64,000 nt of DNA, taken from assembly GCA_040769125.1 (NCBI GenBank), contig JAXGLO010000001.1, positions 656,069 through 720,068 of the forward strand, read 5' to 3'. Position numbers and translations under genes: made by a program. The DNA comes from Thermoleophilia bacterium (lineage in GTDB: Bacteria; Actinomycetota; Thermoleophilia; UBA2241). Shown one piece after another: positions 13,577 through 28,759 of the stretch. The notes under the pieces were generated by a model, which did no database searches, was not told where the DNA came from, and saw only the letters and a program-made list of their open reading frames with translations. Numbering within the stretch: the first letter of the stretch is position 1; the number at the start of each line of letters is the position of its first letter.

Positions 13577-13987
13577 TCTACAAGACTGTGGCGGCGCAGG
13601 TTTTCCGACCGTCTTACGCAGGCGCTCAGCCGCGGCTGCCGTCTCCCCCCTGCGCCGGCTCCTTCTTCGTCTGCGCCATGCGCGCCACGATGATCGACGC
13701 TTCGCAGAGGGTTGCGATCGGCAAGAGCATCGCGAGCTACGGGAAGGCGTCCGGTCCGGGCGCGATAACTGCAGGAAGCAGCGCTTCTCGTCAGGCGTGA
13801 AGACCGGGGTTCCCGGCGGGGAAGGGCGAAGAAGCTGCCGTAAAGCATAGTTGGCACCCGGGGCAGAGAGATGCCCTGCTCGGCGGCGTCCCACTCGGTT
13901 GCGTGCGTCTTGCGCGCTTTGCTACAGTACGGACGCCGCGGCTGCAGGCAGGCTGCAGTCCCGGATTCGGCGGATGCGGACCTCCAA

Positions 13988-14356
13988 GTGACGAACGCAC
14001 ACCTCATCAACTGGCTCTATGTGTGGCTCTTCATCGCGGCTGGCGGTGCGCTGGTGGTTCTCATCCTGCTTGTGTCCAAGGTGGTGAACCCCAGTCACCC
14101 CTCGGTGGAGAAGTTCTCCGCGTACGAATGCGGCATTCCGCCTGTGGGCAGCCCGTGGGCTCCGTTTGCCGTGCGGTACTTCGTCTTCGGCCTTCTCTTC
14201 CTCGTCTTCGACGTGGAGGCGGCCTTCCTGTTCCCGTGGGCGCTGGCGTTTCGCGGTCTCGGCACTGCCGGCTTCGTGGCGGCGCTCGTGTTCATTGCCG
14301 TGCTGGGGTTCGGTCTGCTGTACGTATGGCGTAAGGGGGCGCTCGAGTGGGCCTGA
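13988..14356 (+). CDS. nuoA: NADH-quinone oxidoreductase subunit A
   Basis: GTG at 13988. Three TM helices, with SAYECG and [23 protein letters not shown] signature. Confidence 0.85.
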
Positions 14357-14901
14357 GTGGCGCGACCGGGAAGCTCGCAGGGCTGCGATTCCCGAAGCTT
14401 GAGCATTTCCAGCAGTCCAACATCATCACCACTACGGCCGACCTCGTCTTCAGCTGGGCGCGCTCACACTCCGTGTTCCCCTTCACGTACGGCCTCGCCT
14501 GCTGCGCGATCGAGATGCTGAGTTCCGGCTTCGCCCGCTTCGACGTCTCCCGGTACGGAATGGAGGTGTTCCGGCCTTCGCCTCGTCAGTGCGATCTGAT
14601 GATCGTGGCGGGGACAGTCAGCGAGAAGATGGCGCCTGTGCTGGTGCGGCTCTACGAGCAGATGGCCGAGCCCAAATGGGTGATCAGCCTGGGCTCGTGC
14701 GCCAACAGCGGAGGGCCGTTCTACGACGGCTACGCGGTGGTCAACGGCGTCGACAAGCTGGTGCCCGTCGACGTGTACATCCCCGGCTGCCCGACGCGTC
14801 CCGAGGCGCTCTTTCAGGGGCTGCTCGAGCTTCAGGGCATAATCCAGCAGCACAAGTTCGTGGTCGAGAAGCCGTCCCCGACGCCGGCAGAGAAGGGCTA
14901 A
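14347..14901 (+). CDS. nuoB: NADH-quinone oxidoreductase subunit B
   Basis: [26 protein letters not shown] and IPGCPTRPE (N2 cluster ligands). Confidence 0.9.
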
Positions 14902-14904
14902 GGC

Positions 14905-15399
14905 GTGGCGCTCCAGATCGGCACTAACCCGCTTGCGCTCGACGCGCTTGTCGAGCTGCTCGTCACCGAGTTCGGCGGCGAGCTGCGCGATGTGCGCTCA
15001 CAGGAGCCCTGGACAGTCGTCGCGCGCTGCGAAGCCGCACAGCTGAAGGCCGTCGCGCGGCGCCTTCGCGAGCACGCCGAGGTCGGGTACGAGACGCTCA
15101 ACTTCATCGCCGGAGTCGACAGGGTCTCAAGCCTCGAGGCTGTCTATCACCTCTACTCGTGGAAGACCAATACCTACCTCGAGCTCCACGTCGAGCTGCC
15201 GCGCGAAGCCGCCGAGGTCGGCACCGTCACCGACGTATGGCCGGCGGCCGACTGGCATGAGCGGGAGGCGTGGGACATGCTTGGCATTCGCTTCGCCGGT
15301 CACCCCGACCTGCGCCGGATCCTTCTCAAGGACGACTTCGTCGGCCACCCGCTGCGCAAGGACTACGTCGATAGCGCCAGGAACCACCCGCATGTTTGA
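14905..15399 (+). CDS. nuoC: NADH-quinone oxidoreductase subunit C
   Basis: 164 aa. VWPAADWHEREAWDMLGIRFAGHPDLRRILL is the 30-kDa subunit signature. Confidence 0.9.
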   Translation: MALQIGTNPLALDALVELLVTEFGGELRDVRSQEPWTVVARCEAAQLKAVARRLREHAEVGYETLNFIAGVDRVSSLEAVYHLYSWKTNTYLELHVELPREAAEVGTVTDVWPAADWHEREAWDMLGIRFAGHPDLRRILLKDDFVGHPLRKDYVDSARNHPHV

Positions 15400-16606
15400 C
15401 CACTTCGCGACACCTGAGCCCGACGAGGCGCTCAAGCTCGCGTTGCGGCGCATCGAGGAGTCGAAGGATCGCGGCGAGGGCTCCGACCTCGAGGGCCTCG
15501 CCCTCAACGAGGTCGTGGTCAACATGGGGCCGCAGCACCCTTCCACGCACGGCGTTCTGCGCCTGCTGGTCACGCTGGACGGCGAGCTCGTCAAGGACGT
15601 CATCCCCGTCATCGGGTACCTGCACCGCTGCAAGGAGAAGCTGGCCGAGAAGCGCACCTACTACCAGTACATCCCGATCCTCGATCGCACCGAGTACGTC
15701 GCGGGCATTAACTGTGAATGGGCGTACGTGATGACGGTCGAGAAACTCGCCGGGATTACACCGACGCGGCGGGCGGAGTTCATCCGCGTCGCCACCGCCG
15801 AGCTCAACCGTATCGCCAGCCACCAGGTGGCGCTCGGCACCTTCACCGCCGACCTCTCCCCTCTGGGGACGGCCATGGCCTTCTATTCGTTCCGCGACCG
15901 CGAGCTGATCCTCGACCTCCTCGAGGAGGTTAGCGGCGGGCGCATGATGTTCAACTATTTCCGCTTCGGCGGCGTCCGCGACGACCTTCCCGACGGCTGG
16001 GTCGAGAAGTGCCGCGACCTCATGCGGCGGATGCCGAAGCTCATTGACGAGTACGAGGCGCTGCTCGACGACAACGCCACCTTCCTGCAACGCTGCGTGG
16101 GTAAAGGTGTCATCAGCCAGCAGGACGTCGTCGACTACGGCATCACCGGCCCCAACGCGCGCGCCTCGGGTGTCGCGCTGGATCTCCGCCGCACGCGGCC
16201 GTACTCCGTGTACCCGGAACTCGACTTCGCAGTCTGCACCGCCACCCACGGCGACATCTTCGACCGCTACAGAGTGCGTATCGACGAGATGCGTGAATCG
16301 GCCAAGATCGTCGAGCAGTGCCTCGACATGATGCCCGGCGGTCCGGTGCGCCTCGGCTCGCGGCGCGCGCCCTACGTCATCGCGCCGCCGCCCGGCGCCT
16401 GCTATGTCGGCCTGGAGAACCCCCGCGGCGAGTTCGGCACGTACATTGTGAGCGACGGGTCGCGGTATCCGTACCGGCTCAAGTTCCGCGACCCCTGCTT
16501 CTGCAACCTGCAGATCTTTCCCAAGCTCCTGCGTGGCAACAAGATCGCCGACGCGGTGGCCATCTCGGGGAGCATCGACCTGATTCTGGGAGGGATCGAC
16601 CGCTAG
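15392..16606 (+). CDS. nuoD: NADH-quinone oxidoreductase subunit D
   Basis: ATG at 15392 (8-nt overlap with nuoC). NMGPQHPSTHGVLRL, the 49-kDa signature, and C-terminus ISGSIDLILGGIDR. Confidence 0.9.
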   Translation: MFDHFATPEPDEALKLALRRIEESKDRGEGSDLEGLALNEVVVNMGPQHPSTHGVLRLLVTLDGELVKDVIPVIGYLHRCKEKLAEKRTYYQYIPILDRTEYVAGINCEWAYVMTVEKLAGITPTRRAEFIRVATAELNRIASHQVALGTFTADLSPLGTAMAFYSFRDRELILDLLEEVSGGRMMFNYFRFGGVRDDLPDGWVEKCRDLMRRMPKLIDEYEALLDDNATFLQRCVGKGVISQQDVVDYGITGPNARASGVALDLRRTRPYSVYPELDFAVCTATHGDIFDRYRVRIDEMRESAKIVEQCLDMMPGGPVRLGSRRAPYVIAPPPGACYVGLENPRGEFGTYIVSDGSRYPYRLKFRDPCFCNLQIFPKLLRGNKIADAVAISGSIDLILGGIDR

Positions 16607-17734
16607 ATGGATCTCATGGAGCTCATCCTCGGCGTACTTCGCGCCCTGCTCTTTGTGGTGATCGCCTACGCGGTGGTGTTCGTGGCGGCGCTCGTCAACA
16701 TCATCTTCGAACGTCGCGCTCTCGCGGTCATGCAGGATCGCCTCGGGCCCAACCGCACCGGGCCACAGGGTGTATTCCAGAGCGTCGCCGACGCCTTCAA
16801 GATGATTGGCAAGGAGGACTTCCGGCCGACGCTCGCCGACCCGTATCTCTTCACGCTGGCGCCGATTCTGGTCATGTTTGGCGCCGTTGCCATACAGGTC
16901 GTGCTCCCGTACACGGGCGGCCTCATGGCGACCGATCTCGACGTCGGAATCATCTTCATCGTCGCAATCTCCAGCTTCACGACGCTGGCCCTCCTGCTCG
17001 GCGGCTGGTCCTCGCGCAACAAGTGGTCACTGGTCGGGGCGCTTCGCGCCGCCGCTCAGATGATCTCTTACGAGGTGCCCATGATCCTCGGCCTGCTGGT
17101 CGTCGCCATGATCGTGGGCTCGCTCAGCCTCAAGGACGTCGTGGCCGCCCAGGCCGGTTACCAGTGGATCGCGTTCTACGCGCCCTTCACCTTCCTGCTC
17201 TTCTACATCCCGTCGATCGCCGAACTTAATCGCGGCCCGTTCGACCTTCCCGAATCCGAGTCCGAGCTCGTCGGCGGCTACGGCACCGAGTACTCAGGAA
17301 TGCGGTTCGGCATGTTCTTCCTCAACGAGTATGCGGGAATGACCATCATGTCGATGGTGGTCGTCACCTTGTTCTTCGGCGGCTGGCAAGGGCCGTGGGC
17401 GGACGCCGTGGTCTTCTGGGGCGTCTCCTGGATCGGCCTCCTGTGGTTCGTCCTCAAGGCGTACATCCTCGTTTTCACGCTGATCTGGGTCCGGCTCACG
17501 TTACAGCGCCTGCAGGCCGACCAGCTCATGGCCTTCGCCTGGAAGGTCCTCATCCCATTGGGCTTCCTCAACATCCTGGGGAGCGCCGCCGTCATTCTGT
17601 GGGCGCCTCACTGGAAGATCGCAATGGCCATCTTCAGCTGGGCCTCCCTGATCGCCTTCGTGGCCCTCTTCGACCCGATCCTCAAGTGGCGTCTGCGTAA
17701 GCAGCGCGAGCGCCTCCCGGTGGTGAACGCCTGA
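16607..17734 (+). CDS. nuoH: NADH-quinone oxidoreductase subunit H
   Basis: Starts immediately after the nuoD stop. ERRALAVMQDRLGPNRTGPQGVFQSVADAFK and AELNRGPFDLPESESELVGGY motifs. Confidence 0.9.
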   Translation: MDLMELILGVLRALLFVVIAYAVVFVAALVNIIFERRALAVMQDRLGPNRTGPQGVFQSVADAFKMIGKEDFRPTLADPYLFTLAPILVMFGAVAIQVVLPYTGGLMATDLDVGIIFIVAISSFTTLALLLGGWSSRNKWSLVGALRAAAQMISYEVPMILGLLVVAMIVGSLSLKDVVAAQAGYQWIAFYAPFTFLLFYIPSIAELNRGPFDLPESESELVGGYGTEYSGMRFGMFFLNEYAGMTIMSMVVVTLFFGGWQGPWADAVVFWGVSWIGLLWFVLKAYILVFTLIWVRLTLQRLQADQLMAFAWKVLIPLGFLNILGSAAVILWAPHWKIAMAIFSWASLIAFVALFDPILKWRLRKQRERLPVVNA

Positions 17735-18495
17735 TGCTCGGCATTATCAAAGCGATGTGCACGACGCTGAGTCATCTGCCCAAGAAGAAGACCACCGTGC
17801 AGTACCCTGAGCAGCGCGAGCTCCTGCCTGAGCGCAGTCGCGGCCTCATCCGGATGGTCGTCGACCCGGAGACTGGTGAGCCGCGGTGCCGCGCGTGCAC
17901 GGTCTGCGAGACCACCTGCCCTGCGCAGGTGATCCGGGTCAACTACGAGAGCACGTACGATCTCCCGGCCCCCAACGCGGCGCGCATCGCCGAGGTGCGT
18001 CTGGCCGTGCAGCCTGACGTCGATCTCACGCTGCTCCAGCCGGTGATCGACGACCAGCGTGAGCACGGCAAGGAGATCATCGCCGTGCTGCAGAATGTGC
18101 AAGACGTTTACGGCTATCTGCCGCGGGCTGCGCTGCAGGAGGTCGCCCTCCAGACCGGCACGCCGCTCTCGCAGATCTACGGCGTCTCCAGCTTCTACAA
18201 CCAGTTCCGGCTGTCGCCCATCGGCAAGCGCCTCATCGATGTGTGTCACGGTACGGCCTGCCACGTCGCCGGGGCGCCGCAGATCACTGAGGCTCTCGAA
18301 GAGGAGCTGGGCATCGCCGACGGCAAGACGACCAGCGACAGGGAGTTCACGCTGAGCTCCGTGGTGTGCATGGGCGCGTGCTCGCAGGCGCCCGTCATGC
18401 GTATCGGCGACCAGACCTTCGGCAATCTCACCCCCGACAAGACACGCAGGATCATCCGCGACCTCATGACGCAGGTCGGGGCCAAGAAGGGGTGA
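17734..18495 (+). CDS. fusion protein: NuoI N-terminal half (single CxxCxxCxxxCP motif) + NuoE-type thioredoxin-like [2Fe-2S] domain
   Basis: aa 1-70 (MLGIIKAMCTTLSHLPKKKTTVQYPEQRELLPERSRGLIRMVVDPETGEPRCRACTVCETTCPAQVIRV) align with the NuoI N-terminus through its first ferredoxin motif. aa ~115-245 are NuoE-like (VCHGTAC...CMGACSQAP, i.e. Cx4C...Cx3C). TGATG overlap with nuoH. Confidence 0.8.
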   Translation: MLGIIKAMCTTLSHLPKKKTTVQYPEQRELLPERSRGLIRMVVDPETGEPRCRACTVCETTCPAQVIRVNYESTYDLPAPNAARIAEVRLAVQPDVDLTLLQPVIDDQREHGKEIIAVLQNVQDVYGYLPRAALQEVALQTGTPLSQIYGVSSFYNQFRLSPIGKRLIDVCHGTACHVAGAPQITEALEEELGIADGKTTSDREFTLSSVVCMGACSQAPVMRIGDQTFGNLTPDKTRRIIRDLMTQVGAKKG

Positions 18496-18506
18496 CGCGA
18501 AACCAT

Positions 18507-20417
18507 ATGACCGACGATCTCACCAGGAACACGGCCCAGAGCGGCGGCGAGCAGGCCGCCGAGGCGCGCAACGTCAAGGTCTCGCAGGCCGCCGACGGCC
18601 GCTTGCGCGTGAGCGTGTGCGCCGGCACGGCCTGCGTGTTCGCGGGGTCGATGGCCGTCCACGACGCCTTCGTCGAGGAGGTCGAGGCGGCGGGGCTCAA
18701 AGACCGGGTCGAGGTCTCGATCATCGGCTGCCACGGCCTCTGCACGCAGAGCCCCGTGGTCGTCGCCTCGGACGACGTGTTCTACGGCAAGGTCAAGCTT
18801 AAGGACGTCAAGGCGATTGTCGGCGAGCATCTGGTGGACGGCGCCCCGGTCGAGAGGCTCATCTACAAGGATCCCGCGACCGGCGAGGCCGTGCGCGACT
18901 GGCACGAGATCGGGTTCTACCGTGAGCAGACACGTATCGCCCTGCGCAACGTGGGCATCGTCAACCCCGAGAGCATCGACGATGCGCTGGCGCGCGGCAG
19001 CTACGAAGCGGCGCGTACGGCGCTTACGACGATGACGCCGGACGAGATCATCGAGCTGGTGGAAGCGTCCGGCATCCGTGGGCGCGGTGGCGCCGGGTTC
19101 CCCACCGGCGCCAAGTGGCGGGTCGCGCGACAGTCCTCGGGGGACGAGAAGTACGTCATCTGCAACGGCGACGAGGGCGACCCCGGCGCGTTCATGGACG
19201 CCTCCATCATGGACGGCGATCCGCACGCCGTGCTCGAGGGCATGCTGATCGCCGGCTTCGCGATCGGCGCACACGAGGGCTACATCTTCGTGCGCGCCGA
19301 GTACCCCCTGGCGGTCAGGCGCCTCAGAGCGGCGATCGCCGCCGCCGAGGAGCGCGGGTATCTCGGCGACGATATCTTCGGCTCCGGCTGGCGGTTCCGC
19401 GTTCATCTCAAGCTCGGCGCGGGCGCCTTCGTCTGTGGCGAGGAGACCGCGCTCATCGCCTCGATCGAGGGCCGGCGGGGCACGCCGCGCGTGCGGCCGC
19501 CATACCCCGCCGTCTCCGGCCTCGGCGGCAAGCCGACCAGCATCAACAACGTCGAGACTCTAGCGAACATCCCGTGGATCGTCACGCACGGAGCCGAGGC
19601 GTACAGCGAGCTCGGCTGTGATGCCAGTTGCGGCACCAAGGCCTTCTCGCTGGCCGGCAAGATCGTCAACGGCGGTCTCGCTGAGGTTCCCATGGGCTCA
19701 ACCCTGCGCCACCTCATCTTCGAGGTCGGCGGCGGCGTCAAGGACGGCAGGGAGTTCAAGGCCGTCCAGCTCGGCGGCCCTTCGGGCGGTTGTCTGCCCG
19801 CGGCCCTGCTCGACACGGCGATCGACTACGAGAGTCTGGCCGCCACCGGCGCCATCGTCGGGTCGGGCGGCATGGTGGTCATGGACGACCAGACCTGTAT
19901 GGTCGACCTCGCACGGTTCTTCCTGCATTTCACGCAGAAGGAAAGCTGCGGCAAGTGCGTCCCCTGCCGTCTTGGCACGAAGCGCATGCTCGAGATCCTC
20001 GACCGCATCTGTGCTGGTCAGGGCTGCGAAGGCGACATCGAGATCCTCGAGGAGCTTGCCCACTCCATCATCGAAGGCTCGCTGTGTGCTCTGGGTGGCA
20101 CGGCGCCCAACCCCGTGCTCACGACGATCAGGTACTTCCGCGACGAATACGAGGCGCATATCCGCGAGAAGCGCTGCCCCGCTGGCGCGTGCAAGGCGCT
20201 CATCACCTACTACATCGATCCGGAGGCCTGCACCGGTTGCACCTTGTGCGTCAAGAAGTGCCCCAGTCAGGCGATCACCGGCGAGAAGAAGCAGCCGCAC
20301 GTCATCGACGCGGCGGGCTGTATCAAGTGCGATACGTGCCGTCAGGTGTGCAAGTTCGACGCCGTCAAGGTGCGCTCGGGCATCCCGCAGGCGGCCGGCG
20401 TGGACGGGGAGGGGTGA
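18507..20417 (+). CDS. nuoF: NuoF/HydB-type flavoprotein (FMN, NADH site, N3 cluster) with extra N-terminal [2Fe-2S] and C-terminal 2x[4Fe-4S] domains
   Basis: N-terminal VCAGTAC...GCHGLCTQSP; GRGGAGFPTGAKW (FMN); ICNGDEGDPGAF (NADH); ESCGKCVPCR...SLCALG (N3). C-terminal CTGCTLCVKKCP and CIKCDTCRQVC. Confidence 0.85.
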   Translation: MTDDLTRNTAQSGGEQAAEARNVKVSQAADGRLRVSVCAGTACVFAGSMAVHDAFVEEVEAAGLKDRVEVSIIGCHGLCTQSPVVVASDDVFYGKVKLKDVKAIVGEHLVDGAPVERLIYKDPATGEAVRDWHEIGFYREQTRIALRNVGIVNPESIDDALARGSYEAARTALTTMTPDEIIELVEASGIRGRGGAGFPTGAKWRVARQSSGDEKYVICNGDEGDPGAFMDASIMDGDPHAVLEGMLIAGFAIGAHEGYIFVRAEYPLAVRRLRAAIAAAEERGYLGDDIFGSGWRFRVHLKLGAGAFVCGEETALIASIEGRRGTPRVRPPYPAVSGLGGKPTSINNVETLANIPWIVTHGAEAYSELGCDASCGTKAFSLAGKIVNGGLAEVPMGSTLRHLIFEVGGGVKDGREFKAVQLGGPSGGCLPAALLDTAIDYESLAATGAIVGSGGMVVMDDQTCMVDLARFFLHFTQKESCGKCVPCRLGTKRMLEILDRICAGQGCEGDIEILEELAHSIIEGSLCALGGTAPNPVLTTIRYFRDEYEAHIREKRCPAGACKALITYYIDPEACTGCTLCVKKCPSQAITGEKKQPHVIDAAGCIKCDTCRQVCKFDAVKVRSGIPQAAGVDGEG

Positions 20418-20423
20418 TGTAGC

Positions 20424-22898
20424 GTGGCGACGACCGCTGACGACGTCATGCGCGCTCAGGCTCAGCGCCCCGACCAGATCACGCTGACCATCGACGGCCA
20501 CGAGGTCCGCTGCGACCGCGGCGAGACGATCCTGGAGGCGGCGCGGCGCGTGGGCGTCTACATCCCCACGCTCTGCCACGAGCCGCGCCTGCCGGCCACT
20601 GCCGCCTGCCGCGTCTGCCTCGTGGAGGTGGAGGGCGCCCGCAAGACGGTTCCCAGCTGCTCCACGGCCGCCGCTGAGGGCATGGTCGTGCACACGCAGA
20701 CCGAGAAGGTCCGCGCCATGCGCCGCCTCTACCTCGAGCTCCTGCTCAGCGACCACAGCTCCTTCTGCACGCCACCCTGTCGCGACGCCTGCCCCACGCA
20801 CATCAAGATCCCACAGTTCCTGGATCTGATCGCGCACGGCGACTACAGGAACGGCGTTCGCAAGCTGCGTGAGGATCTGCCCTTCCCGTCCGTTCTGGGA
20901 CGCGTCTGCCCGCGGCCCTGCGAGAGTTCCTGTCGCCGGGATCTCGCCGACAACCCCATCTCGATCTGCTGGCTGCATCGCTTCATGGGCGACCAGTGCC
21001 TCGATGAGCAGCAGGACGGCGAGCTGCTGCTGCCTGTCGATCCCAAACCTGAGAGCGGCAAGCGCATCGCCATCGTCGGCGGCGGCCCCGCCGGCCTCTC
21101 CGCCGCCTTCTACTCCCGGCTCGAGGGCCACGCGGTCAAGATCTTCGAGGCGCAGGCCAAGCCCGGCGGTATGCTGCGCTACGGCATTCCCAGCTATCGC
21201 ATGCCTCGCGAGGTGCTCGACAAGGAGCTGAACATCCTCTGGCGCATGGGCGTCGAGCTCCAGACAGACGTACGCCTCGGCGTCGACTTCCAGCTCGGCG
21301 ATCTTCGCGACGAGTACGACGCCGTATTCCTCGCCCTGGGCGCCTTCAACTCGAACGAAATGAAGATCCCCGGCGAGGACGCCGACGGCGTCGTCACCGC
21401 CATCGATTTCCTCGGCGACCTCGAGCGCGACGGCACCGTCCACGTCGGCAACAAGGTCACCGTCATCGGCGGCGGCTTCACCGCCATGGACGCCTGCCGC
21501 ACCGCCGTGCGCCTCGGTGCAGAAGAGGTCACCTGTCTCTACCGGCGCTCGCGCAAGGAGATGCCCGCCCACTACACCGAGGTCGACGAGGCCGAGGAGG
21601 AGGGCGTCAAGCTGGAGCTGCTGGTGGCGCCGGTGCGCATCATGGTCGAAGGCAACAAGGTTGCCGGCATCGAGATGCAGCGCATGGAGCTCGGCGAGCC
21701 CGACGCCTCCGGCCGCCGTCGCCCCGTGCCCGTCGAGGGGTCGGAGTTCGTCATCGAGTGCGACCAGGTTGTCGCTGCCATCGGCCAGTATCCCAAACTC
21801 GACGGCACCAGCGAGGAGCAAGGCATCAAGCGCACTCGCTGGCGCACGATCGAGGTCGACGACTGGACGCTGCAGACCGCCGACCCCAAGGTCTTCGCCG
21901 GCGGCGACGTCGTGCTCGGCGCGCAGACCGTCGTCCAGGCGATCGCCCAGGGCAAGAAGGCCGCCTGGAGCATCGACGCCTTCTTGCGCGGCGCCGACAT
22001 GAAGGATGTCTCCCGGCAGCTCGCCGAGCTCAAGGCGTCGCCGTTCCTGGCCGCGCTTTCTCAGAAGGACGACCTCGACCCGCGTATCGCACGCCTCGCC
22101 GAGATCCCGCCGGTGTTCATCGACATGACTACCGACGTTACGCATCCAGCGCCGCCGGCTGAGATGCCCAGGCTCACGCCCGACGAACGCAAGACCAACT
22201 TCGAGCAGATCGAGTTCGGGCTCCACGAGGACGTTGCGGTGAACGCCGCCAAGCTCTGCCTGCAGTGTCACTGCCCGGCCAACGGCTCGTGCGAGCTGCA
22301 GAAGCTCGGCATCGAATACGAGGTCTTCGAGAACCGGTTCCACGGCGGCGAGACGCACGACTACCCCGCCGACTTCCGCCACGATTTCGTCATGCGCGAG
22401 CCCAACCGCTGCATCAACTGCGGTCGCTGCGTCGAGGTCTGCCGGCAGGAGATCGGGGCGAGCTGCTACGACTTCATGGGCCGCGGTTTCGACGCCATCG
22501 TCTCGACTCCCGACAACCTCCCGCTGCACATGGTCGGCTGCATCTCCTGTGGCAAGTGTGCCGAGACATGCCCCACCGGTGCGATCACCACCAACCCGCG
22601 GCTGCTCATCCGCTACGATCTCGACGAGAGCCGCTGCATCTTCTGCGGCGACTGCGTCGAGGCGTGCCCCTACGATGCGCTGGAGCAGACGAGCTACTTC
22701 GAGCTGGCCAGCTATAGTCGCACGGATCTGGTGCAGGAGTCGCTGTACGTACGCGAGCCACGCCCCGCCGATGGCCTCGGGGAGACGGTGCCCGACCAGG
22801 CGCCTCATACCCGCGACAGCCAGCGCGGCCGCGGCTGGGTCTGGACTCCCATCAAGGACGAGCCCGTAGTGCTCGACGACTCGGAGGGGGGCGCCTGA
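20424..22898 (+). CDS. multidomain protein: NuoG/HydA-type [2Fe-2S] + GltD/NfnB-like FAD/NAD(P)H oxidoreductase + NuoG/HydA-type [4Fe-4S] domains + NuoI C-terminal half
   Basis: aa 18-100: plant-type [2Fe-2S] (LCH..ACRVC..PSCS). aa ~105-525: GltD-like (FCTPPCRDACPTHIKIPQF, VCPRPCESSC, IVGGGPAGL, VIGGGFTAMD...LYRRS). aa 610-722: CLQCHCPANGSCELQ, CINCGRCVEVC and CISCGKCAETCPTGAI. aa 725-775: LIRYDLDESRCIFCGDCVEACPYDALEQTSYFELASYSRTDL, which is the NuoI second motif plus the NuoI C-terminal signature. Confidence 0.8.
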   Translation: MATTADDVMRAQAQRPDQITLTIDGHEVRCDRGETILEAARRVGVYIPTLCHEPRLPATAACRVCLVEVEGARKTVPSCSTAAAEGMVVHTQTEKVRAMRRLYLELLLSDHSSFCTPPCRDACPTHIKIPQFLDLIAHGDYRNGVRKLREDLPFPSVLGRVCPRPCESSCRRDLADNPISICWLHRFMGDQCLDEQQDGELLLPVDPKPESGKRIAIVGGGPAGLSAAFYSRLEGHAVKIFEAQAKPGGMLRYGIPSYRMPREVLDKELNILWRMGVELQTDVRLGVDFQLGDLRDEYDAVFLALGAFNSNEMKIPGEDADGVVTAIDFLGDLERDGTVHVGNKVTVIGGGFTAMDACRTAVRLGAEEVTCLYRRSRKEMPAHYTEVDEAEEEGVKLELLVAPVRIMVEGNKVAGIEMQRMELGEPDASGRRRPVPVEGSEFVIECDQVVAAIGQYPKLDGTSEEQGIKRTRWRTIEVDDWTLQTADPKVFAGGDVVLGAQTVVQAIAQGKKAAWSIDAFLRGADMKDVSRQLAELKASPFLAALSQKDDLDPRIARLAEIPPVFIDMTTDVTHPAPPAEMPRLTPDERKTNFEQIEFGLHEDVAVNAAKLCLQCHCPANGSCELQKLGIEYEVFENRFHGGETHDYPADFRHDFVMREPNRCINCGRCVEVCRQEIGASCYDFMGRGFDAIVSTPDNLPLHMVGCISCGKCAETCPTGAITTNPRLLIRYDLDESRCIFCGDCVEACPYDALEQTSYFELASYSRTDLVQESLYVREPRPADGLGETVPDQAPHTRDSQRGRGWVWTPIKDEPVVLDDSEGGA

Positions 22899-23410
22899 TG
22901 CCTGGTGGCGACTTCCACCCCTGGCTGTTCGTAATGGTTGCGGCGTGGGTCCTCATCTGCGGGCTCGGCGTCGTGCTCTTCAGAAACATCGTGTACTCTG
23001 CCGTCGCGATGGTGTTCTGCTTCCTCGGCATTGCCTTCGCCTACGCCCTGCTCAATTCGGCGCTTCTGGCGATCGTGCAGATCCTCGTCTACGTCGGCGC
23101 CATCTCGGTGGTGATCATCTTCGCGATCATGCTCACTGAAAAGCGGAAGGGCGGCTTCGACCTGTTCTTCAACCGCCAGACGGTGGTAGCGGCGCTTGTC
23201 GCGATCGCCGGCGCCGTCGCGCTTGCCGTGGCGGTCGGCGGCGCCGGGCTCGGCGCTGTGGTTCCCAAGGCGTTCAACCCCGGGGTGCGGCGGCTCTCCC
23301 AGATCCTGTTCGACCGCTTTGTCTTCCCGTTCGAGCTGGTGTCGCTGGTTCTGGTAGCCGCCATGGTTGGCGCCATCGTTCTCTCGCTCAAGAAGGAGGA
23401 GCGGCCGTGA
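22898..23410 (+). CDS. nuoJ: NADH-quinone oxidoreductase subunit J
   Basis: TGATG overlap with the preceding gene. 5 TM; LLAIVQILVYVGAISVVIIFAIML signature. Confidence 0.85.
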   Translation: MPGGDFHPWLFVMVAAWVLICGLGVVLFRNIVYSAVAMVFCFLGIAFAYALLNSALLAIVQILVYVGAISVVIIFAIMLTEKRKGGFDLFFNRQTVVAALVAIAGAVALAVAVGGAGLGAVVPKAFNPGVRRLSQILFDRFVFPFELVSLVLVAAMVGAIVLSLKKEERP

Positions 23411-23715
23411 GCGCCCTCTCGTGGTGGCTTGTTCTGGCGTCTCTGCTCTTCTGCATCGGCGCCTTCGGCGTGCTTTCGAGGCGCAACATCATCCAGGTGG
23501 TGATGAGCCTCGAGGTGATGCTCAACGCCGTCAACCTGGCGCTCGTGGCGATCGCCAACTTCCGCGGCGGCTCCGAGGGCGCCGGCACGCTCTTCTCGTT
23601 GTTCATCATCGCCGTGGCGGCCGCCGAGGTCGCCGTGGGTCTCGCCATCATCATCGCCAACTATCGCAATAAGCGGACCGTCCAGGTGGATCGGTTCGAC
23701 GAGCTCAAGGGCTAG
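23407..23715 (+). CDS. nuoK: NADH-quinone oxidoreductase subunit K
   Basis: 102 aa, 3 TM; SLEVMLNAVNLALVA...AVAAAEVAVGLAII. Confidence 0.9.
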   Translation: MSALSWWLVLASLLFCIGAFGVLSRRNIIQVVMSLEVMLNAVNLALVAIANFRGGSEGAGTLFSLFIIAVAAAEVAVGLAIIIANYRNKRTVQVDRFDELKG

Positions 23716-23727
23716 GCAGGAGCGCGC

Positions 23728-25665
23728 GTGGAAGCAGCAGTACAGCAGATCGTGGTGGAGGGTACGCAGTCCCTGAAGGCTGCGGTAGCGCTGATCCCAC
23801 TGCTGCCGCTGGCCGGATTCCTGCTCACCCTGCTCTTCGGCAAGCGGATGGGCGAGCGGGCGCACGTGCTGCCCGTGGCTCTCGTCACCGCCACGGCCGC
23901 CCTCTCGGTGTACGTCTTCGTGTGGGCCTTCCGGCACCCTGGGGAGGCGTTCGTCTGGGACGCGTTCTCCTGGATCGTCGCCGGTGGTTACTCGGTGCAG
24001 TGGGGCTTTCTCGTCGACCCGCTCACCGGCATCATGCTGCTGGTCGTCGGCCTTATCGGCATGCTGGTGCACTATTACTCGATCGGCTACATGAAGGGCG
24101 ACGGCGGCTACTACCGCTTCTTCGCCTATCTCAACCTCTTCATGTTCGCGATGTTCATGCTCATCCTCGCGGACAACTACCTGCTGCTCTTCCTCGGCTG
24201 GGAGGGCGTCGGCCTCTGCTCGTACCTGCTCATCGCGTTCTGGTTCCGCAAGAAGAGCGCGAGCCAGGCCGGCAAGAAGGCGTTCCTGGTCAACCGTGTA
24301 GGCGATTTCGGTTTCCTGCTGGCGATGTTCCTCATCTTCGTCACGACCGGCACGCTGCAGTTCACGGGCGTCTTCGACAAGGCTGAGATGATCGGATCGG
24401 GCACGCTCCTCTGTATCTGTCTGCTGCTCTTCACCGGTGCGGTCGGCAAGAGCGCCCAGTTCCCGCTGCACGTGTGGCTGCCCGATGCCATGGAGGGTCC
24501 CACGCCGGTCAGCGCCCTCATTCACGCCGCCACGATGGTCAACGCCGGCGTCTACATGGTGGCGCGCTCGTATCCGCTGTACATCAACGCGGAGACGGCG
24601 ATGCTCGTGGTCATGGCCGTCGGCGCCTTCACCGCGATCTACTCGGCCTACATCGCGATCACCCAGAACGACATCAAGAAGGTGATCGCCTACTCGACCA
24701 TCTCGTCACTGGGATTCATGTTCCTTGCGCTCGGCGCGGGGGCGTGGACGGCCGGCATCTTCTACCTCTTCGTGCACGGCTTCTTCAAGGGCCTCCTCTT
24801 CCTGTGCTCCGGCTCGGTGATCCATGCTGTGGGCGGCGAGCAGGACATGCGGCGGATGGGAGGGCTGCACACGCGTATCCCGATCACCTTCTGGACGATG
24901 CTCATCGGCGCGATCGCGCTCATCGGCGTCTTCCCGTTCGCGGGCTTCTGGGCCAAGGACGAAATCCTGGGCGGCGCCTTCATGGGCGGCTACTACGTGG
25001 TTTGGGCAGTCGGCATCGTCACAGCCTTCCTCACGGCGATCTTCGCCTTCCGCATGATCTTCCTCACCTTCTTCGGCGAGTGCCGGGCGCCCGCCGAGGT
25101 CCAGAGCCACATCCACGAGTCGCCATGGGTCATGACCCTGCCGCTCGTGCTGCTGGCTATCCCTTCTGTGGCTGCGGGCGTCCTCGTCGGCTGGCCGCCG
25201 GAGTCCGGCTGGATCCACTCGTTCCTGGCGCCCGTGTTCTTCGACGCCAAGCATCACGAGTTCAGCTGGCTCGGCGTCGGCGGCGGCCTCATGGTTCTCT
25301 CGGTGGCCGTCGCGCTGCTGGGCGTCTACGTCGCCTACGTGATGTACATGCGTCGTACGGAGCTGCCTGGCCAGCTTGCGCAGCGCTTCCCGGCGGCCTA
25401 CAGGGCTTCGCTGAACAAGCTGTACATGGATGAGGCGTACGAGGTCGTGCCGATCCGCAGCACGATCGGCCTCGCCACCTGGCTGTGGAAGTTCTTCGAC
25501 GTCCGCGTCATCGACGGTGCGGTCAACGGTGTGGCCCGGCTGTGGGGCGGCTTCGGTGCGCGTCTGCGCCCGCTGCAGACTGGGCAGGTGCAGAACTACG
25601 CGCTCTCGATCTTCGCCGGCATGGTCATCCTGGTCGTCGTCCTCGCCTGGATCTGGGGGGCCTGA
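23728..25665 (+). CDS. nuoL: NADH-quinone oxidoreductase subunit L
   Basis: 645 aa antiporter-like subunit. GWEGVGLCSYLLIAFW, KSAQFPLHVWLPDAMEGPTPVSALIHAATMV. Confidence 0.9.
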   Translation: MEAAVQQIVVEGTQSLKAAVALIPLLPLAGFLLTLLFGKRMGERAHVLPVALVTATAALSVYVFVWAFRHPGEAFVWDAFSWIVAGGYSVQWGFLVDPLTGIMLLVVGLIGMLVHYYSIGYMKGDGGYYRFFAYLNLFMFAMFMLILADNYLLLFLGWEGVGLCSYLLIAFWFRKKSASQAGKKAFLVNRVGDFGFLLAMFLIFVTTGTLQFTGVFDKAEMIGSGTLLCICLLLFTGAVGKSAQFPLHVWLPDAMEGPTPVSALIHAATMVNAGVYMVARSYPLYINAETAMLVVMAVGAFTAIYSAYIAITQNDIKKVIAYSTISSLGFMFLALGAGAWTAGIFYLFVHGFFKGLLFLCSGSVIHAVGGEQDMRRMGGLHTRIPITFWTMLIGAIALIGVFPFAGFWAKDEILGGAFMGGYYVVWAVGIVTAFLTAIFAFRMIFLTFFGECRAPAEVQSHIHESPWVMTLPLVLLAIPSVAAGVLVGWPPESGWIHSFLAPVFFDAKHHEFSWLGVGGGLMVLSVAVALLGVYVAYVMYMRRTELPGQLAQRFPAAYRASLNKLYMDEAYEVVPIRSTIGLATWLWKFFDVRVIDGAVNGVARLWGGFGARLRPLQTGQVQNYALSIFAGMVILVVVLAWIWGA

Positions 25666-25666
25666 C

Positions 25667-27256
25667 ATGAGCTGGAGCACGCAGGTGGGCTTCCCGATCC
25701 TCTCCACCATAACGTTCATACCGCTGCTGGGCGTGGCTCTTATCTTGCTCGTCGGCCGCGGCCGCCCGCAGGTGTACAAGGTCATTTCGCTGGCCGTGAC
25801 CCTCGGCGCCTTCGCGCTGGCTCTCTGGATGATGCTGGCCTTCGACACGGCCGCGCGCGGCATGCAGTTCGTCGAGGACGTCGTGTGGATCCGCGCCTTC
25901 AACATCCACTACGGCATGGGCGTCGACGGCATCGCTGCCCTTCTGCTTTTCCTCACCACGCTGCTCGGCGTGATCGTCATTGTGGGGAGCTGGAACTACG
26001 TCAAGGACCGCGAGATGGGCTTCTTCATCTCGCTCCTCCTGCTGCAGGTCGGCATGTCGGGCGTGTTCTGCGCCACCGATCTCTTCCTCTTCTACGTGTT
26101 CTGGGAGGCCATGCTGGTGCCGATGTACTTCATCATCGGCATCTGGGGCGGCCCGCGGCGCATCTACGCCGCCATCAAGTTCTTCCTGTTCACGCTGATC
26201 GGCAGCCTGCTCATGCTCGTCGCGATCATCGCCGTTGTGCTCTACGTCAAGGGCAACGCTGTGGGGGGCATCACCTTCGACATTCAGGCCCTGAGCGACC
26301 AGGTCTACCCGTACGGCCTGCAGTTCTGGGCCTTCCTCGCGTTCTTCGTCGCCTTCGCCATCAAGGTGCCCATGTTCCCGGTGCACACCTGGTTGCCGGA
26401 CGCCCACGTGGAGGCGCCCACGGCAGGCTCGGTGGTCCTCGCCGGCGTTCTGCTCAAGATGGGCGGCTACGGTATTCTGCGCTTCTGCCTGCCGTTCTTC
26501 CCGGACGCGGCGGTAGCCTTCATTCCTTTCGCCGTCGTGCTCTCGGTGATCGCCATCGTCTACGGCGCTCTGGTCTCGCTGATGCAGAAGGACCTCAAGA
26601 AGCTGGTCGCGTACTCGAGTGTGAGCCACATGGGCTTCGTGACTGTCGGTATCTTCGCCTCCATCGCCGTGGCCGGCAACGCTGCAGGCATGGAGGGGGC
26701 CATCATCGTGATGTTCAGCCACGGCCTGCTCACCGGCGCCCTCTTCCTCCTGGTGGGATACCTTTACGAGCGCACGCGCACACGCCAGATCGCGGACATG
26801 AGTATGCTGGCCACGCCGTTGCCCGTGCTCGCTGGGTTCCTCCTGTTCTTCGTGCTGGGCTCGCTGGGGCTGCCGGGGCTGAGCGGCTTCGTCGGCGAGT
26901 TCCTCAGCCTGCTCGGGCTCTTCGCCTACTCGCACTGGCTGGCGGTCGTGGCCGCCACCGGCGTCATCCTGGCCGCCTGCTACCTGCTCTGGATGTTCCA
27001 GCGCACGATGTTCAACGATCGCGGCGACGCCGCCGTCAAGCCGGCGCTCACCATGCCCGATCTCAGCGTTCGTGAGATCGCCACGCTCCTGCCGCTCGTG
27101 GCGCTCGCGGTCTGGGTGGGCGTGTACCCCAACACCTTCCTCGAGTTCCTGCACGTGCCCGTACAGGAGATCCTCGACCAGGTGACGCCGTCGCTGCAGA
27201 CTGCGCAGGGCGGCGGGCTGGCGCAGCTCGTCGAGTTCACGAGGGGGTTGTTCTAG
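25667..27256 (+). CDS. nuoM: NADH-quinone oxidoreductase subunit M
   Basis: ATG at 25667, just after the nuoL stop. FWEAMLVPMYFIIGIWGG, KVPMFPVHTWLPDAHVEAPTAGSVVLAGVLLKMGGYG. Confidence 0.9.
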   Translation: MSWSTQVGFPILSTITFIPLLGVALILLVGRGRPQVYKVISLAVTLGAFALALWMMLAFDTAARGMQFVEDVVWIRAFNIHYGMGVDGIAALLLFLTTLLGVIVIVGSWNYVKDREMGFFISLLLLQVGMSGVFCATDLFLFYVFWEAMLVPMYFIIGIWGGPRRIYAAIKFFLFTLIGSLLMLVAIIAVVLYVKGNAVGGITFDIQALSDQVYPYGLQFWAFLAFFVAFAIKVPMFPVHTWLPDAHVEAPTAGSVVLAGVLLKMGGYGILRFCLPFFPDAAVAFIPFAVVLSVIAIVYGALVSLMQKDLKKLVAYSSVSHMGFVTVGIFASIAVAGNAAGMEGAIIVMFSHGLLTGALFLLVGYLYERTRTRQIADMSMLATPLPVLAGFLLFFVLGSLGLPGLSGFVGEFLSLLGLFAYSHWLAVVAATGVILAACYLLWMFQRTMFNDRGDAAVKPALTMPDLSVREIATLLPLVALAVWVGVYPNTFLEFLHVPVQEILDQVTPSLQTAQGGGLAQLVEFTRGLF

Positions 27257-28759
27257 ATGGGCGCCAACAACGCCGTCGTCATCATTCTGCCGGCCCTCGT
27301 CGTGGTGGCCGCAGCCATTCTGGTCTTCGCCGTCGACATGTTCATTTCGCGCAAGACGCCGTTGGCCTGGGTTGCCGGCGGCGGGCTCGCCGTTGCTATC
27401 GGCGTGGCGCTGGGCCAGTGGGTGACTTTCGGCGAGGGCCTCGCCTTCGACCGCCGTGGCCCGGAGACCGGCTTCGCCGACATGGTTTCGCTCGACACCT
27501 ACGCGCTGTACGCTACCGTGCTCTTCTGCCTGGTGGGCATCGCCACCATCATGCTGTCGGACGCCTATCTGGCGCGGCGCAAGGCCGCGCGCGGCGAGTT
27601 TTACGGCCTGCTGCTGCTCATCACCACGGGCATGATCGCCATGGCGCAGAGCACCGACATCATCGCCTTCTTTGTCTCGTTCGAGCTGGTGTCGCTGCCC
27701 ACGTACGTACTCGCCGGCTACATCTGGCGCGACGAGCGCTCCGGTGAGGCGTCGATTAAATACTTCGTCAACGGCGCCTTCGCCTCGGCGATCCTCGCTT
27801 TCGGCCTGGCGCTCGCCTATGGTGCCACCGGCCAGACGAGCTACGCCGGCATCGCCCGGGGCATCTCGGCTATCGACGGCGGCGACGCTCAGGCCATGGT
27901 GGTCGCCGCGTTCGTGCTCATCGTCACCGGCTTCGGCTTCAAAGTGAGCGCCGTGCCGTTCCACAGCTGGGCGCCGGACGTCTACGAGGGCGCCCCCACG
28001 CCGGTCACCGCCTTCATGTCGGTGGGCGTCAAGGCGGCGGCTTTCATGGGCTTCGCCAAGCTCTTCGTCATGGCGGCGCAGCCGCAGTCGCAGACCTGGG
28101 TCGACGCCATGATCGTTCTGGCCGTGCTCACCATGGTCGTGGGGAACGTGCTGGCCCTGCCGCAGCAGAACCTCAAGAGAATGCTCGCCTATTCCAGCAT
28201 CGGCCACGCCGGCTACCTTCTGCTGGGGCTCATCGCCGCCGGCACGACCGGCGACGGGGCAGGCGTGGGCGCCGTCCTGTTCTATCTGGCGGTCTACGCC
28301 TTCATGAACCTTGGCGCCTTCGGCGTGCTCATCTGGATCCGCAGCCGCCGCGCCTACCGGTACACGCTCGGTGAGGTCGGCGGCCTCGCGCGCACCATGC
28401 CGTGGGCGGCGATCCTGATGGCGCTGCTGATGGTGTCGCTCGCGGGCATCCCGCCGACCGCCGGGTTCTGGGGCAAGTTCTACCTCTTCACCGCCGTTGT
28501 GCACGCCGATTTCACGTGGCTGGCCATCCTCGCCGTCGTGATGAGTGCCGTGTCGGCGTACTACTATCTGCGCGTCGTGTGGTACATGTTCTTCCGCGAG
28601 GCACCGGAGGGCCAGGAGGTTCACCCGGAGCCGGATTCGTCGCAGGTGGGCGTCGCCGCCGCCGTCGGCATCGCGGCGCTGGCCGTGATGGCCGTCGGCG
28701 TCTTCCCGCAACAGCTTCTCGAAGCCGCCCAGGGCGCTCTGCGCCTCTTCGGCGGCTGA
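27257..28759 (+). CDS. nuoN: NADH-quinone oxidoreductase subunit N
   Basis: Starts at the nuoM stop. FELVSLPTYVLAG, FKVSAVPFHSWAPDVYEGAPTPVTAFMSVG. Confidence 0.9.
   Translation: MGANNAVVIILPALVVVAAAILVFAVDMFISRKTPLAWVAGGGLAVAIGVALGQWVTFGEGLAFDRRGPETGFADMVSLDTYALYATVLFCLVGIATIMLSDAYLARRKAARGEFYGLLLLITTGMIAMAQSTDIIAFFVSFELVSLPTYVLAGYIWRDERSGEASIKYFVNGAFASAILAFGLALAYGATGQTSYAGIARGISAIDGGDAQAMVVAAFVLIVTGFGFKVSAVPFHSWAPDVYEGAPTPVTAFMSVGVKAAAFMGFAKLFVMAAQPQSQTWVDAMIVLAVLTMVVGNVLALPQQNLKRMLAYSSIGHAGYLLLGLIAAGTTGDGAGVGAVLFYLAVYAFMNLGAFGVLIWIRSRRAYRYTLGEVGGLARTMPWAAILMALLMVSLAGIPPTAGFWGKFYLFTAVVHADFTWLAILAVVMSAVSAYYYLRVVWYMFFREAPEGQEVHPEPDSSQVGVAAAVGIAALAVMAVGVFPQQLLEAAQGALRLFGG

Follow-up and report, generated by a model that had tools for sequence, protein, structure and literature searches.

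Complex I normally accepts electrons at a single donor site, where NADH reacts with flavin mononucleotide (FMN), and it normally contains an undivided NuoI subunit. The nuo operon described here appears to differ on both counts. It occupies positions 13988-28759 of a 64,000-nucleotide stretch of a Thermoleophilia bacterium (GenBank assembly GCA_040769125.1, contig JAXGLO010000001.1, positions 656,069 to 720,068; this whole stretch is called the window below). Its nuoI is split into two halves, each fused to a different gene of a flavin/iron-sulfur (Fe-S) module, and one of these genes encodes a GltD-like domain with a putative NADPH site.

The closest described systems are found in the Bfu family, which was defined by Schut et al. 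2022 together with 57 clades of its BfuB subunit and within which Nuo-Bfu, Mbh-Bfu, Por-Bfu and Nfn-Bfu enzymes were predicted (PMC9304861). The published Nuo-Bfu has 14 separate subunits; BfuABC take the place of NuoEFG at the canonical gene position, NuoI is intact, and there is neither an NADP site nor a GltD domain (PMC9304861). It has been proposed to pass electrons from NADH and reduced ferredoxin to menaquinone, and its hosts are Deferribacteres, Proteobacteria, Planctomycetes and Nitrospirae, for example Geobacter sulfurreducens (PMC9304861). Actinobacteria are not mentioned in that paper, and its supplement contains no Thermoleophilia or related names; in the literature searched, the term Nuo-Bfu is met only there.

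Several other described enzymes share parts of this design. In StnC, a [2Fe-2S] domain (residues 1-101) is followed by an inserted GltD domain (102-565), by NuoG-like clusters and by an inactive FdhF-like domain (683-1172) (PMC10482914). The electron path through NfnABC of C. saccharolyticus runs from flavin adenine dinucleotide (FAD) in the order FAD-A7-A6-A3-A2-A1-[B1-FMN-C1]-B3-B4, with clusters A4 and A5 as a side branch (PMC11829005), and the C1/C2 branch of Stn that matches A4/A5 has been called a non-functional remnant (PMC10482914). For Type 1 Bfu enzymes, FeFe-Bfu among them, it has been proposed that the A4 branch links the catalytic (third-substrate) domain with the BfuBC core (PMC9304861). 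In HydABC this branch leads to the H-cluster. Finally, in the Mbx-like operons of Thermotoga and some proteobacteria, a flavoprotein related to GltD stands in the place of NuoI (Degli Esposti 2015, PMC4758237).

A NuoI divided between two fusion proteins

The listing of open reading frames (ORFs), combined with Pfam assignments, gives 13 genes, tightly packed and all on the + strand. Their order is nuoA-B-C-D-H-[NuoI(N)::E-like]-[F-like]-[2Fe2S-GltD-FeS::NuoI(C)]-J-K-L-M-N, which agrees with the order on one strand given in a preliminary description of this DNA. The three genes between nuoH and nuoJ are called ORF1, ORF2 and ORF3 (Table 1). ORF1 begins as NuoI typically does, and its N-terminal part includes the sequences TVQYPEQRELLPERSRG and CRACTVCETTCP; it has the N-terminal helix, the YPE...LPERSRG motif and the first of the two CxxCxxCxxxCP motifs (Cys52/55/58/62). 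The end of ORF3 carries RYDLDESRCIFCGDCVEACPYDALEQTSYFELASYSRTDLV, the second half of NuoI, with the second CxxCxxCxxxCP motif (Cys738/741/744/748), the FELASYSR helix and a conserved GWxWxP tail. The two motifs lie about 4.7 kb apart, with ORF2 between them, so that no single polypeptide encoded at the locus contains both.

The two parts fit together as halves of one protein. ORF1 residues 8-74 and ORF3 residues 726-772 match the NCBIfam model for NuoI, TIGR01971 (121 positions), over complementary segments without overlap. Joined in silico, the halves align colinearly, both CxxCxxCxxxCP motifs included, with NDUFS8/NuoI chains from solved structures of complex I (E = 7e-20), whereas ORF1 by itself aligns with only the first half of these chains. 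The residues expected to hold Fe-S clusters are under strong constraint: the NuoI cysteines are 98-100% conserved among 52 homologues of ORF1, those of the ORF3 NuoI(C) part are 100% conserved, and 25 joined-half sequences, drawn from four families, show no change in any of the eight cysteines or in either proline. A search of every frame of the 64-kb window found no other candidate CxxCxxCxxxC motif for an intact nuoI; such motifs are present only in ORF1, ORF2, ORF3 and an upstream protein resembling the alpha subunit of indolepyruvate ferredoxin oxidoreductase (IorA-like). An intact nuoI hidden in another frame is rejected on the basis of this search. The split nuoI claimed in the preliminary description is thus borne out by the two halves of TIGR01971, by the alignment of the joined halves and by the lack of any other nuoI motif in the window. 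Within the ORF3 tail, at residues ~790-815, a motif of the form VPHVxDxxxGxGWxWxPxKDDP is conserved among the Thermoleophilia homologues and may form a contact to the membrane arm or to ORF1.

The layout recurs widely. More than 120 full-length homologues of ORF1 are present in public metagenomes at 63-79% identity, and the ORF1 of the window is 79% identical to that of a Thermoleophilia metagenome-assembled genome (MAG). A scan that took one genome per species returned 80 loci, which were checked by tblastn with all proteins of the window; genes with broken frames were left out of the conservation counts. The NuoI(N)::E fusion, at >=60% identity, is present at 56 of these loci in species-representative genomes. 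At 36 of the 56, the complete colinear order A-B-C-D-H-[I(N)::E]-[F]-[Fer2-GltD-FeS-I(C)]-J-K-L-M-N is found; another 18 are cut by contig ends and are colinear as far as the sequence goes, and the remaining 2 are flagged only for a cross-hit of the nuoN query to nuoL where the contig ends. Almost all carriers are MAGs labelled Thermoleophilia or Actinomycetota, and their isolate names point to peat or bog, lake sediment, anaerobic bioreactors and Danish soils. At L009, L012, L023, L032, L050, L051, L059 and L060, which come from one soil MAG project with isolate names beginning 'MFD', genes are split into several tblastn segments; these look like frameshift errors of assembly rather than real pseudogenes.

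A reading in which the fusions are produced by faulty assembly or gene calling is therefore close to impossible, since, in addition to the metagenomic homologues, 56 independent genomes at species level, produced by different projects with different assemblers, have the same in-frame fusions and gene order. GC content and third-position GC (GC3) are also even over the whole stretch, including the fusion junctions. Misassembly and frameshift artefacts are rejected on the recurrence of the in-frame fusions. The preliminary description had regarded a chimeric assembly as the chief threat to its reading, and had proposed a search of related genomes for the order H-[I'E]-F-[G'GltD'I]-J; that order does recur, and the chimera is excluded.

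The module inserted between nuoH and nuoJ

In a canonical operon, genes for NuoE, NuoF and NuoG would lie between nuoD and nuoH. None is found there, and the electron-input module sits instead between nuoH and nuoJ. Its three proteins are far closer to the subunits of the soluble, electron-bifurcating NfnABC, StnABC and HydABC enzymes than to NuoE/F/G. Residues 94-253 of ORF1, downstream of and in frame with the NuoI N-half, form a thioredoxin-like [2Fe-2S] domain with Cys171/176/212/216; for the aligned residues 94-245, the best PDB matches are NfnC (9bov_C), StnA (8oh5_A) and NfnC (9n5u_C), and HydC also aligns. ORF2 consists of a thioredoxin-like domain with four cysteines (~32-120), an FMN/NADH core with the N3/B1 cluster (~147-556), and a 2x[4Fe-4S] ferredoxin domain (~557-620). 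It matches HydB (7t2r_B/7q4v_B), NfnB (9bov_B) and StnB (8oh5_B) over its full length with E = 1e-237 to 1e-231, compared with about 1e-115 for Nqo1 of complex I. The alignment takes in both the N-terminal four-cysteine domain and the C-terminal 2x[4Fe-4S] domain, which set bifurcating enzymes apart from NuoF; thus ORF2 has both extra domains of a BfuB, and ORF1 has the [2Fe-2S] domain of a BfuC.

ORF3 has the architecture of a BfuA of the Nfn-Bfu type up to the point where NuoI begins. A [2Fe-2S] domain (18-93) is followed by a GltD/NfnB-like domain (115-523) with 2x[4Fe-4S] and with FAD and NADPH sites, by a CxxCxCx5C cluster motif (612-623) and by a 2x[4Fe-4S] domain (663-716). Residues 20-743 align with NfnA of C. 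saccharolyticus (9bov_A, 1.3e-190), StnC of S. ovata (8oh5_C, 1.7e-164) and an archaeal NfnA (9n5u_A, 3e-159), whereas NuoG/75-kDa chains match only the N-terminal ~100 residues, at ~1e-21 to 1e-26. The alignment to NfnA/StnC stops at about residue 743-748 of 824; the rest is NuoI(C). Neither Pfam nor the PDB alignments reveal a molybdopterin-like or formate dehydrogenase (Fdh)-like domain in ORF3, and the C-terminal Fdh-like domain of Nfn-Bfu BfuA is accordingly missing.

The sites for both nicotinamide nucleotides appear intact. In ORF2, the motifs GRGGAGFPTG and NGDEGDPGAF (NADH at FMN) are preserved, and the GltD domain of ORF3 has both Rossmann motifs together with YRRS, read here as the NADPH signature of GltD/NfnB. 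The ligands are conserved as well: in ORF1, Cys52/55/58/62 and Cys171/176/212/216 are kept across homologues; in ORF2, Cys38/43/75/79, Cys481/484/487/527 and the eight C-terminal cysteines are 97-100% conserved; and in ORF3, essentially all ligand cysteines, including Cys738/741/744/748, are invariant in 31 homologues.

By these matches the inserted genes are an Nfn-Bfu (Stn-type) cassette and not orthologues of NuoE/F/G. Read against its relatives, BfuC has gained NuoI(N) at its N-terminus, and BfuA has gained NuoI(C) at its C-terminus in place of the Fdh-like domain. The preliminary description, which spoke of E/F/G-type genes, was right that these are flavin/FeS input genes, and its idea of an 11-subunit core with a foreign soluble module is supported; the genes themselves are better named BfuC, BfuB and BfuA of Nfn-Bfu (Stn) type on the basis of the PDB matches. 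Likewise, the domains that it assigned to ORF3 as G(N)::GltD::I(C) stand, but they do not represent a fresh fusion: the architecture is that of a pre-existing StnC/NfnA whose Fdh-like domain was swapped for NuoI(C). Automated naming would conceal NuoI. The only model above its cut-off in ORF1 yields the name 'NuoE', and ORF3 falls just under the cut-offs; consequently, genomes with this locus would be scored as having no nuoI.

All 11 core families of complex I are encoded: Pfam identifies A, B, C, D, H, J, K, L, M and N, and NuoI is present as its two complementary halves. NuoB has the ligands of cluster N2, namely the tandem Cys52/53 of GLACCAIEM, Cys118 and Cys148. NuoD has the quinone-site motif QHPSTHG and an aligned Tyr in DRTEY, and does not have NiFe ligands; we take this His and Tyr to be equivalent to His38 and Tyr87 of T. 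thermophilus Nqo4. Three antiporter-like subunits, NuoL, NuoM and NuoN, are encoded. On these features, the core is a complex I of the quinone type.

Alternatively, the operon might encode two separate enzymes: a soluble Nfn-Bfu transhydrogenase and a 'headless' complex I in one nuo operon, with the NuoI-like ends of ORF1 and ORF3 as non-functional remnants. Soluble Nfn-Bfu enzymes do exist (8oh5, 9bov), as do headless, ferredoxin-dependent NDH-1 complexes, which are established knowledge and are discussed in PMC13040438. However, a headless complex I still needs NuoI, and no other NuoI is present in the operon or the window. Furthermore, the invariance of all eight NuoI cysteines over four families indicates strong constraint, the NuoI-specific N-terminal region and C-terminal helix are kept, and ORF3 lacks the Fdh-like domain through which the soluble enzymes form tetramers (PMC10482914). 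Two separate enzymes are thus very improbable.

Table 1. Genes, protein segments and surroundings of the split-NuoI operon (window coordinates)
Feature	Coordinates	Strand	Basis or content
IorA-like gene	6977-8875		indolepyruvate/2-oxoacid:ferredoxin oxidoreductase alpha-like; POR_N + TPP_enzyme_C; C-terminal 4-Cys motif ~8795
PaaK-like gene	9311-11227		phenylacetate-CoA-ligase-like; AMP-binding_C_2
Class A penicillin-binding protein gene	11282-13894	-	transglycosylase + transpeptidase
nuoA	13988-14356	+	PF00507, E = 6.6e-35
nuoB	14347-14901	+	PF01058
nuoC	14905-15399	+	PF00329, E = 2e-41
nuoD	15392-16606	+	PF00346, E = 1.4e-91
nuoH	16607-17734	+	PF00146, E = 1.6e-108
ORF1	17734-18495	+	253 aa; weak Fer4 match residues 51-72; PF01257 NuoE-type 2Fe-2S residues 104-244
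NuoI N-terminal half (ORF1 residues 1-74)	17734-17955	+	TIGR01971 positions 2-66; NDUFS8/NuoI PDB matches to residues 4-75
BfuC/NuoE-type thioredoxin-like [2Fe-2S] domain (ORF1 94-253)	18013-18495	+	PF01257, E = 1e-46
ORF2	18507-20417	+	636 aa; PF01257-like N-terminus; PF01512 + PF10589 NuoF core; C-terminal 2x[4Fe-4S]
BfuB, HydB/NfnB/StnB-type NuoF (ORF2)	18507-20417	+	Pfam; PDB matches
ORF3	20424-22898	+	824 aa; Fer2_4 18-93; Fer4_20 115-195; Pyr_redox_2 214-510; Fer4 motifs 655-754
BfuA, Nfn-Bfu type (ORF3 1-725)	20424-22598	+	Pfam; 9bov_A, 8oh5_C, 9n5u_A
NuoI C-terminal half (ORF3 residues 726-824)	22599-22898	+	TIGR01971 positions 71-117
Conserved ORF3 tail motif (ORF3 ~790-815)	~22790-22870	+	conserved among Thermoleophilia homologues
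nuoJ	22898-23410	+	PF00499
nuoK	23407-23715	+	PF00420
nuoL	23728-25665	+	PF00361, PF00662
nuoM	25667-27256	+	PF00361
nuoN	27257-28759	+	PF00361
Cell-envelope polysaccharide cluster	~34500-53200		see text

The junctions are those of a compact operon. The sequence TGATG joins nuoH to ORF1 (17732-17736) and ORF3 to nuoJ (22896-22900); the ORF1 stop (18493-18495) is followed after 11 nucleotides by the ORF2 ATG, and the ORF2 stop (20415-20417) after 6 nucleotides by the ORF3 GTG. All four junctions had been given in the preliminary description and are found in the sequence. The other genes overlap by 4-10 nucleotides or are separated by 0-12, if nuoD starts at ATG 15392, overlapping nuoC by 8 nucleotides, and nuoM at ATG 25667, in each case the most likely start. 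The start of nuoA is uncertain. The longest ORF, from 13871, would overlap the start region of the divergent penicillin-binding protein gene, which makes GTG 13988 the likelier start, plausible though not proven. A scan of 13-30 kb for promoters and terminators found no promoter-like site inside the operon; terminator-like matches are weak and not clearly above background (12, compared with 7.5 ± 2.7 in shuffled sequence). The scan is consistent with a single operon and tells nothing beyond that.

Farther downstream, and unrelated to the split-NuoI operon, lies a large cell-envelope polysaccharide cluster, with genes for GT4 glycosyltransferases, a Wzy-like O-antigen ligase, a Wzx-type flippase, a DegT aminotransferase, a sugar transferase and a P-loop ATPase that resembles a tyrosine kinase.

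Proposed electron path and related cassettes

The operon probably encodes one membrane complex, in which an 11-subunit-type core carries an Nfn-Bfu (StnABC/NfnABC-like) head spliced into NuoI. Its most likely activity would be that of a proton-pumping oxidoreductase transferring electrons from NADH and NADPH, and possibly also from ferredoxin, to menaquinone. We infer the physical assembly, the electron path, the substrates, the type of quinone and the pumping of protons from the encoded proteins.

In this complex NuoI would be rebuilt from two polypeptides, the N-terminus of ORF1 and the C-terminus of ORF3. In a 2x[4Fe-4S] ferredoxin fold, each cluster is held by three cysteines of one motif and a single cysteine of the other. 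Both N6a and N6b would thus take ligands from ORF1 as well as from ORF3 at the interface of the two, and such shared clusters would clamp the head onto the Q-module. NADPH would give hydride to the FAD in the GltD domain of ORF3 and NADH would give hydride to the FMN in ORF2, with the electrons converging in the cluster chain of BfuA (A7-A6-A3-A2-A1, B1). The ferredoxin domain of ORF3 that bears A4 ends in ...CPTGAI, and the first NuoI(C) cysteine lies 17 residues on. Because NuoI(C) follows the A4 domain in this way, the proposed exit is by the A4 side branch to N6a/N6b in the split NuoI, then to N2 in NuoB and to menaquinone at the NuoD/NuoH site; the reduction of menaquinone would drive proton pumping by NuoL/M/N. 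The strict conservation of the Bfu-specific domains of ORF2, of which the C-terminal one serves ferredoxin docking in Bfu enzymes, suggests ferredoxin as a third partner, much as was put forward for Nuo-Bfu, with which the complex probably also exchanges electrons, either by confurcation of NADH and reduced ferredoxin to quinone or in the reverse direction.

Related gene clusters show how variable such a head can be. Among 1.84 billion representative proteins, the NuoI(N)::NuoE fusion also turned up in two more families, both <50% identical to the ORF1 family. In L081 (359-11571; GC 49%, protein P0123), which belongs to an unrelated lineage, the order is nuoH-[I(N)::E]-[Trx-NuoF::GltD, 1048 aa]-[NuoG-N FeS::I(C), 265 aa]-J-K-L-M-N; here the NuoF-like subunit carries GltD as a C-terminal fusion, and the NuoG-like one has no inserted GltD. 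A third split-NuoI lineage (GC 59%) is represented by L085 (4693-12917) and L086 (3414-11638) and also by L082 and L083; its proteins P0153/P0270 lie on L082, L085 and L086. In L085 and L086 the order is A-B-C-D-H-[I(N)::E, 271 aa]-[plain NuoF, 468 aa]-[Fer2-GltD-FeS-I(C), 799 aa], and the NuoF has none of the extra domains of the Bfu type. The cluster ends after the I(C) fusion, so nuoJKLMN must be elsewhere. As encoded, a NuoI split around an NADH module with GltD is therefore a recurrent design, of which only some versions have the Bfu extras. A short half-ferredoxin::NuoE protein, P0206, was also seen on a short contig.

At 14 loci from the same bacterial class (L055, L056, L057, L061-L063, L065, L067, L070, L072, L076, L077, L079 and L080), a paralogous cassette is found without nuo genes; these loci are called class 2, and the complex I loci class 1. 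At L055 (7712-15752) the cassette lies within an operon for a 2-oxoacid:ferredoxin oxidoreductase (POR), in the order porG-porD-porA-[half-ferredoxin::BfuC]-BfuB-[Fer2-GltD-FeS-half-ferredoxin::PorB]. Wherever else in class 2 the ORF3-like frame is intact, the locus encodes the same BfuA-like fusion of ~1020-1058 residues and the same N-terminal half-ferredoxin. When joined, the class 2 halves form a colinear 2x[4Fe-4S] domain that matches NuoI chains with E = 5e-12 to 1e-8 and polyferredoxins better, so that a derivation of these half-ferredoxins from NuoI is suggestive only. Class 2 may represent a 'Por-Bfu'-type pyruvate/2-oxoacid:NAD(P)+ enzyme equipped with an additional NADPH site. A third pair of BfuC and BfuB, without BfuA and 62-73% identical to ORF2, is found at L058 (8123-12383) and L064 (6176-12495), whose genomes have the split-NuoI operon as well. 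The pair lies directly downstream of C1 genes, FolD-like in both and formate-tetrahydrofolate ligase-like in L064, which are named by their N-terminal sequences only.

A single-sequence AlphaFold2 run on the joined NuoI halves gave an unusable model, with a predicted local distance difference test score (pLDDT) of 32.6. The plain 468-residue NuoF of L085 and L086 indicates that coupling to ferredoxin is not universal in split-NuoI complexes and may not operate here. It also fits a simpler dehydrogenase with two donors, in which NADH at FMN and NADPH at FAD reduce menaquinone with no ferredoxin and neither bifurcation nor confurcation, and in which the extra domains of ORF2 are leftovers. L085 and L086 keep the split NuoI and GltD with such a NuoF, in L081 GltD stands where BfuB would have its C-terminal ferredoxin domain, and GltD is the one constant addition across the variants. 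Moreover, every donor would reduce menaquinone exergonically, according to the potentials in Table 1 of PMC9304861. However, the Bfu-specific ligands (four N-terminal and eight C-terminal cysteines) show their 97-100% conservation over 36 Thermoleophilia species, which argues for a retained function. A dehydrogenase of this simpler kind is the less likely reading but has a substantial probability.

A more ambitious version of the proposed complex can be put forward only tentatively. It would be a 'respiratory Nfn' that links NADH, NADPH, ferredoxin and menaquinone, with flavin-based bifurcation or confurcation of the Bfu type geared to the complex I pump. The split ferredoxin, with two Fe-S clusters shared by two polypeptides, would be a portable 'clasp' by which the same E/F/GltD cassette is plugged either into complex I (class 1) or into pyruvate:ferredoxin oxidoreductase (class 2).

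Upstream of the operon, the IorA-like and PaaK-like genes (Table 1) suggest a ferredoxin-reducing fermentation of aromatic amino acids; together with the POR cassette and the BfuBC pair next to fhs/folD, they fit a ferredoxin-rich, probably anaerobic metabolism. It has to be considered whether the complex runs in reverse, with the proton-motive force driving electrons from menaquinol uphill to NADP+, NAD+ and/or ferredoxin as reductant for biosynthesis. That complex I is reversible is established knowledge, and the NADPH site at this locus would supply such reductant directly; a similar role has been proposed for the Bfu-type NUO-2 of Nitrospina and Kuenenia (PMC3578206). Against this, the neighborhood and the sister loci point to a fermentative or acetogen-like metabolism that produces ferredoxin, in which the disposal of reductant is a more obvious need than its generation, and no lithotrophic system generating quinol is seen in the window. 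Operation in reverse is therefore unlikely.

Comparison with known systems

We know of no conserved NADPH entry site on a quinone-reducing, proton-pumping complex I; if the present reading is true, such a site has been added here. Two [4Fe-4S] clusters would apparently be shared as ligands of two polypeptides, each fused to a different subunit of the head. The modular evolution of these enzymes is also apparent, in that the same split-ferredoxin cassette occurs in a POR operon and two lineages rearrange GltD around the same split. Furthermore, the loci provide abundant concrete sequences with which the 2022 prediction of Bfu modules coupled to complex I can be tested. In practical terms, carrier genomes would be scored as lacking nuoI and as having an incomplete complex I, which would skew metabolic reconstructions of the widespread Thermoleophilia from soil, peat, sediment and digesters.

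The literature available without subscription was searched, and neither a split NuoI nor a quinone-reducing complex I with GltD was found described in it. Three features are undescribed in the searchable literature: a head of the Nfn type whose GltD domain has an NADPH site, the placement of this head between nuoH and nuoJ, and a NuoI made from two fusion proteins. The preliminary description had not recognized the arrangement as a described class of complex I. This holds for the arrangement itself; the Nuo-Bfu concept, however, was predicted in 2022 (PMC9304861).

Like the published Nuo-Bfu, the locus combines a complex I core with a HydB-type NuoF that has extra N- and C-terminal Fe-S domains, its Bfu genes are placed centrally within the nuo cluster, and menaquinone is the proposed acceptor. 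The published BfuA, however, is NuoG-like, with a molybdopterin-like domain and clusters A1-A5 and without GltD or an NADPH site. In contrast, the locus has 13 genes, a split NuoI, GltD and an Nfn-type BfuA that lacks A5 and the Fdh-like domain, and its head is encoded between nuoH and nuoJ. NUO-2 of Nitrospina and Kuenenia (PMC3578206) is grouped with the Nuo-Bfu type.

In the predicted Mbh-Bfu and Por-Bfu of Dehalococcoides (PMC9304861), Bfu genes lie between genes for a hydrogenase related to complex I or beside POR. Mbh-Bfu, with one subunit that has an extra flavin site, is the nearest analogue in layout (PMC9304861), and the class 2 loci such as L055 are a POR-linked Nfn-Bfu cassette. 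As compared by description only, these systems differ in that the partner is a hydrogenase or POR, and the published accounts mention neither a split ferredoxin nor a split NuoI-like subunit.

The headless 11-subunit NDH-1 of cyanobacteria, chloroplasts and many anaerobes has the same 11 core families and likewise has no canonical NuoEFG orthologues. However, its NdhI/NuoI is intact and receives electrons from ferredoxin by way of small accessory subunits, whereas at this locus a large flavin/FeS head is covalently merged with NuoI. The Mbx-like operons also bring a GltD-type NAD(P)H flavoprotein together with a complex-I-like membrane module at the position of NuoI. In their case, though, the module is of the Mbx/Mrp type and has no quinone site, and GltD is said to substitute for NuoI, with no split around three genes.

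The best solved homologues of all three inserted proteins are NfnABC and StnABC (9bov, 8oh5, 9n5u). The domain order of BfuA is identical up to about residue 743, and BfuB has the same extra domains. NfnABC and StnABC are soluble and form tetramers by way of the inactive Fdh-like domain of the A subunit, in whose place ORF3 has NuoI(C); at the locus, BfuC also carries NuoI(N), and the genes are embedded in a nuo operon. Consequently, the A4/A5 branch, which is a dead end in Stn and Nfn, would become the outlet to quinone.

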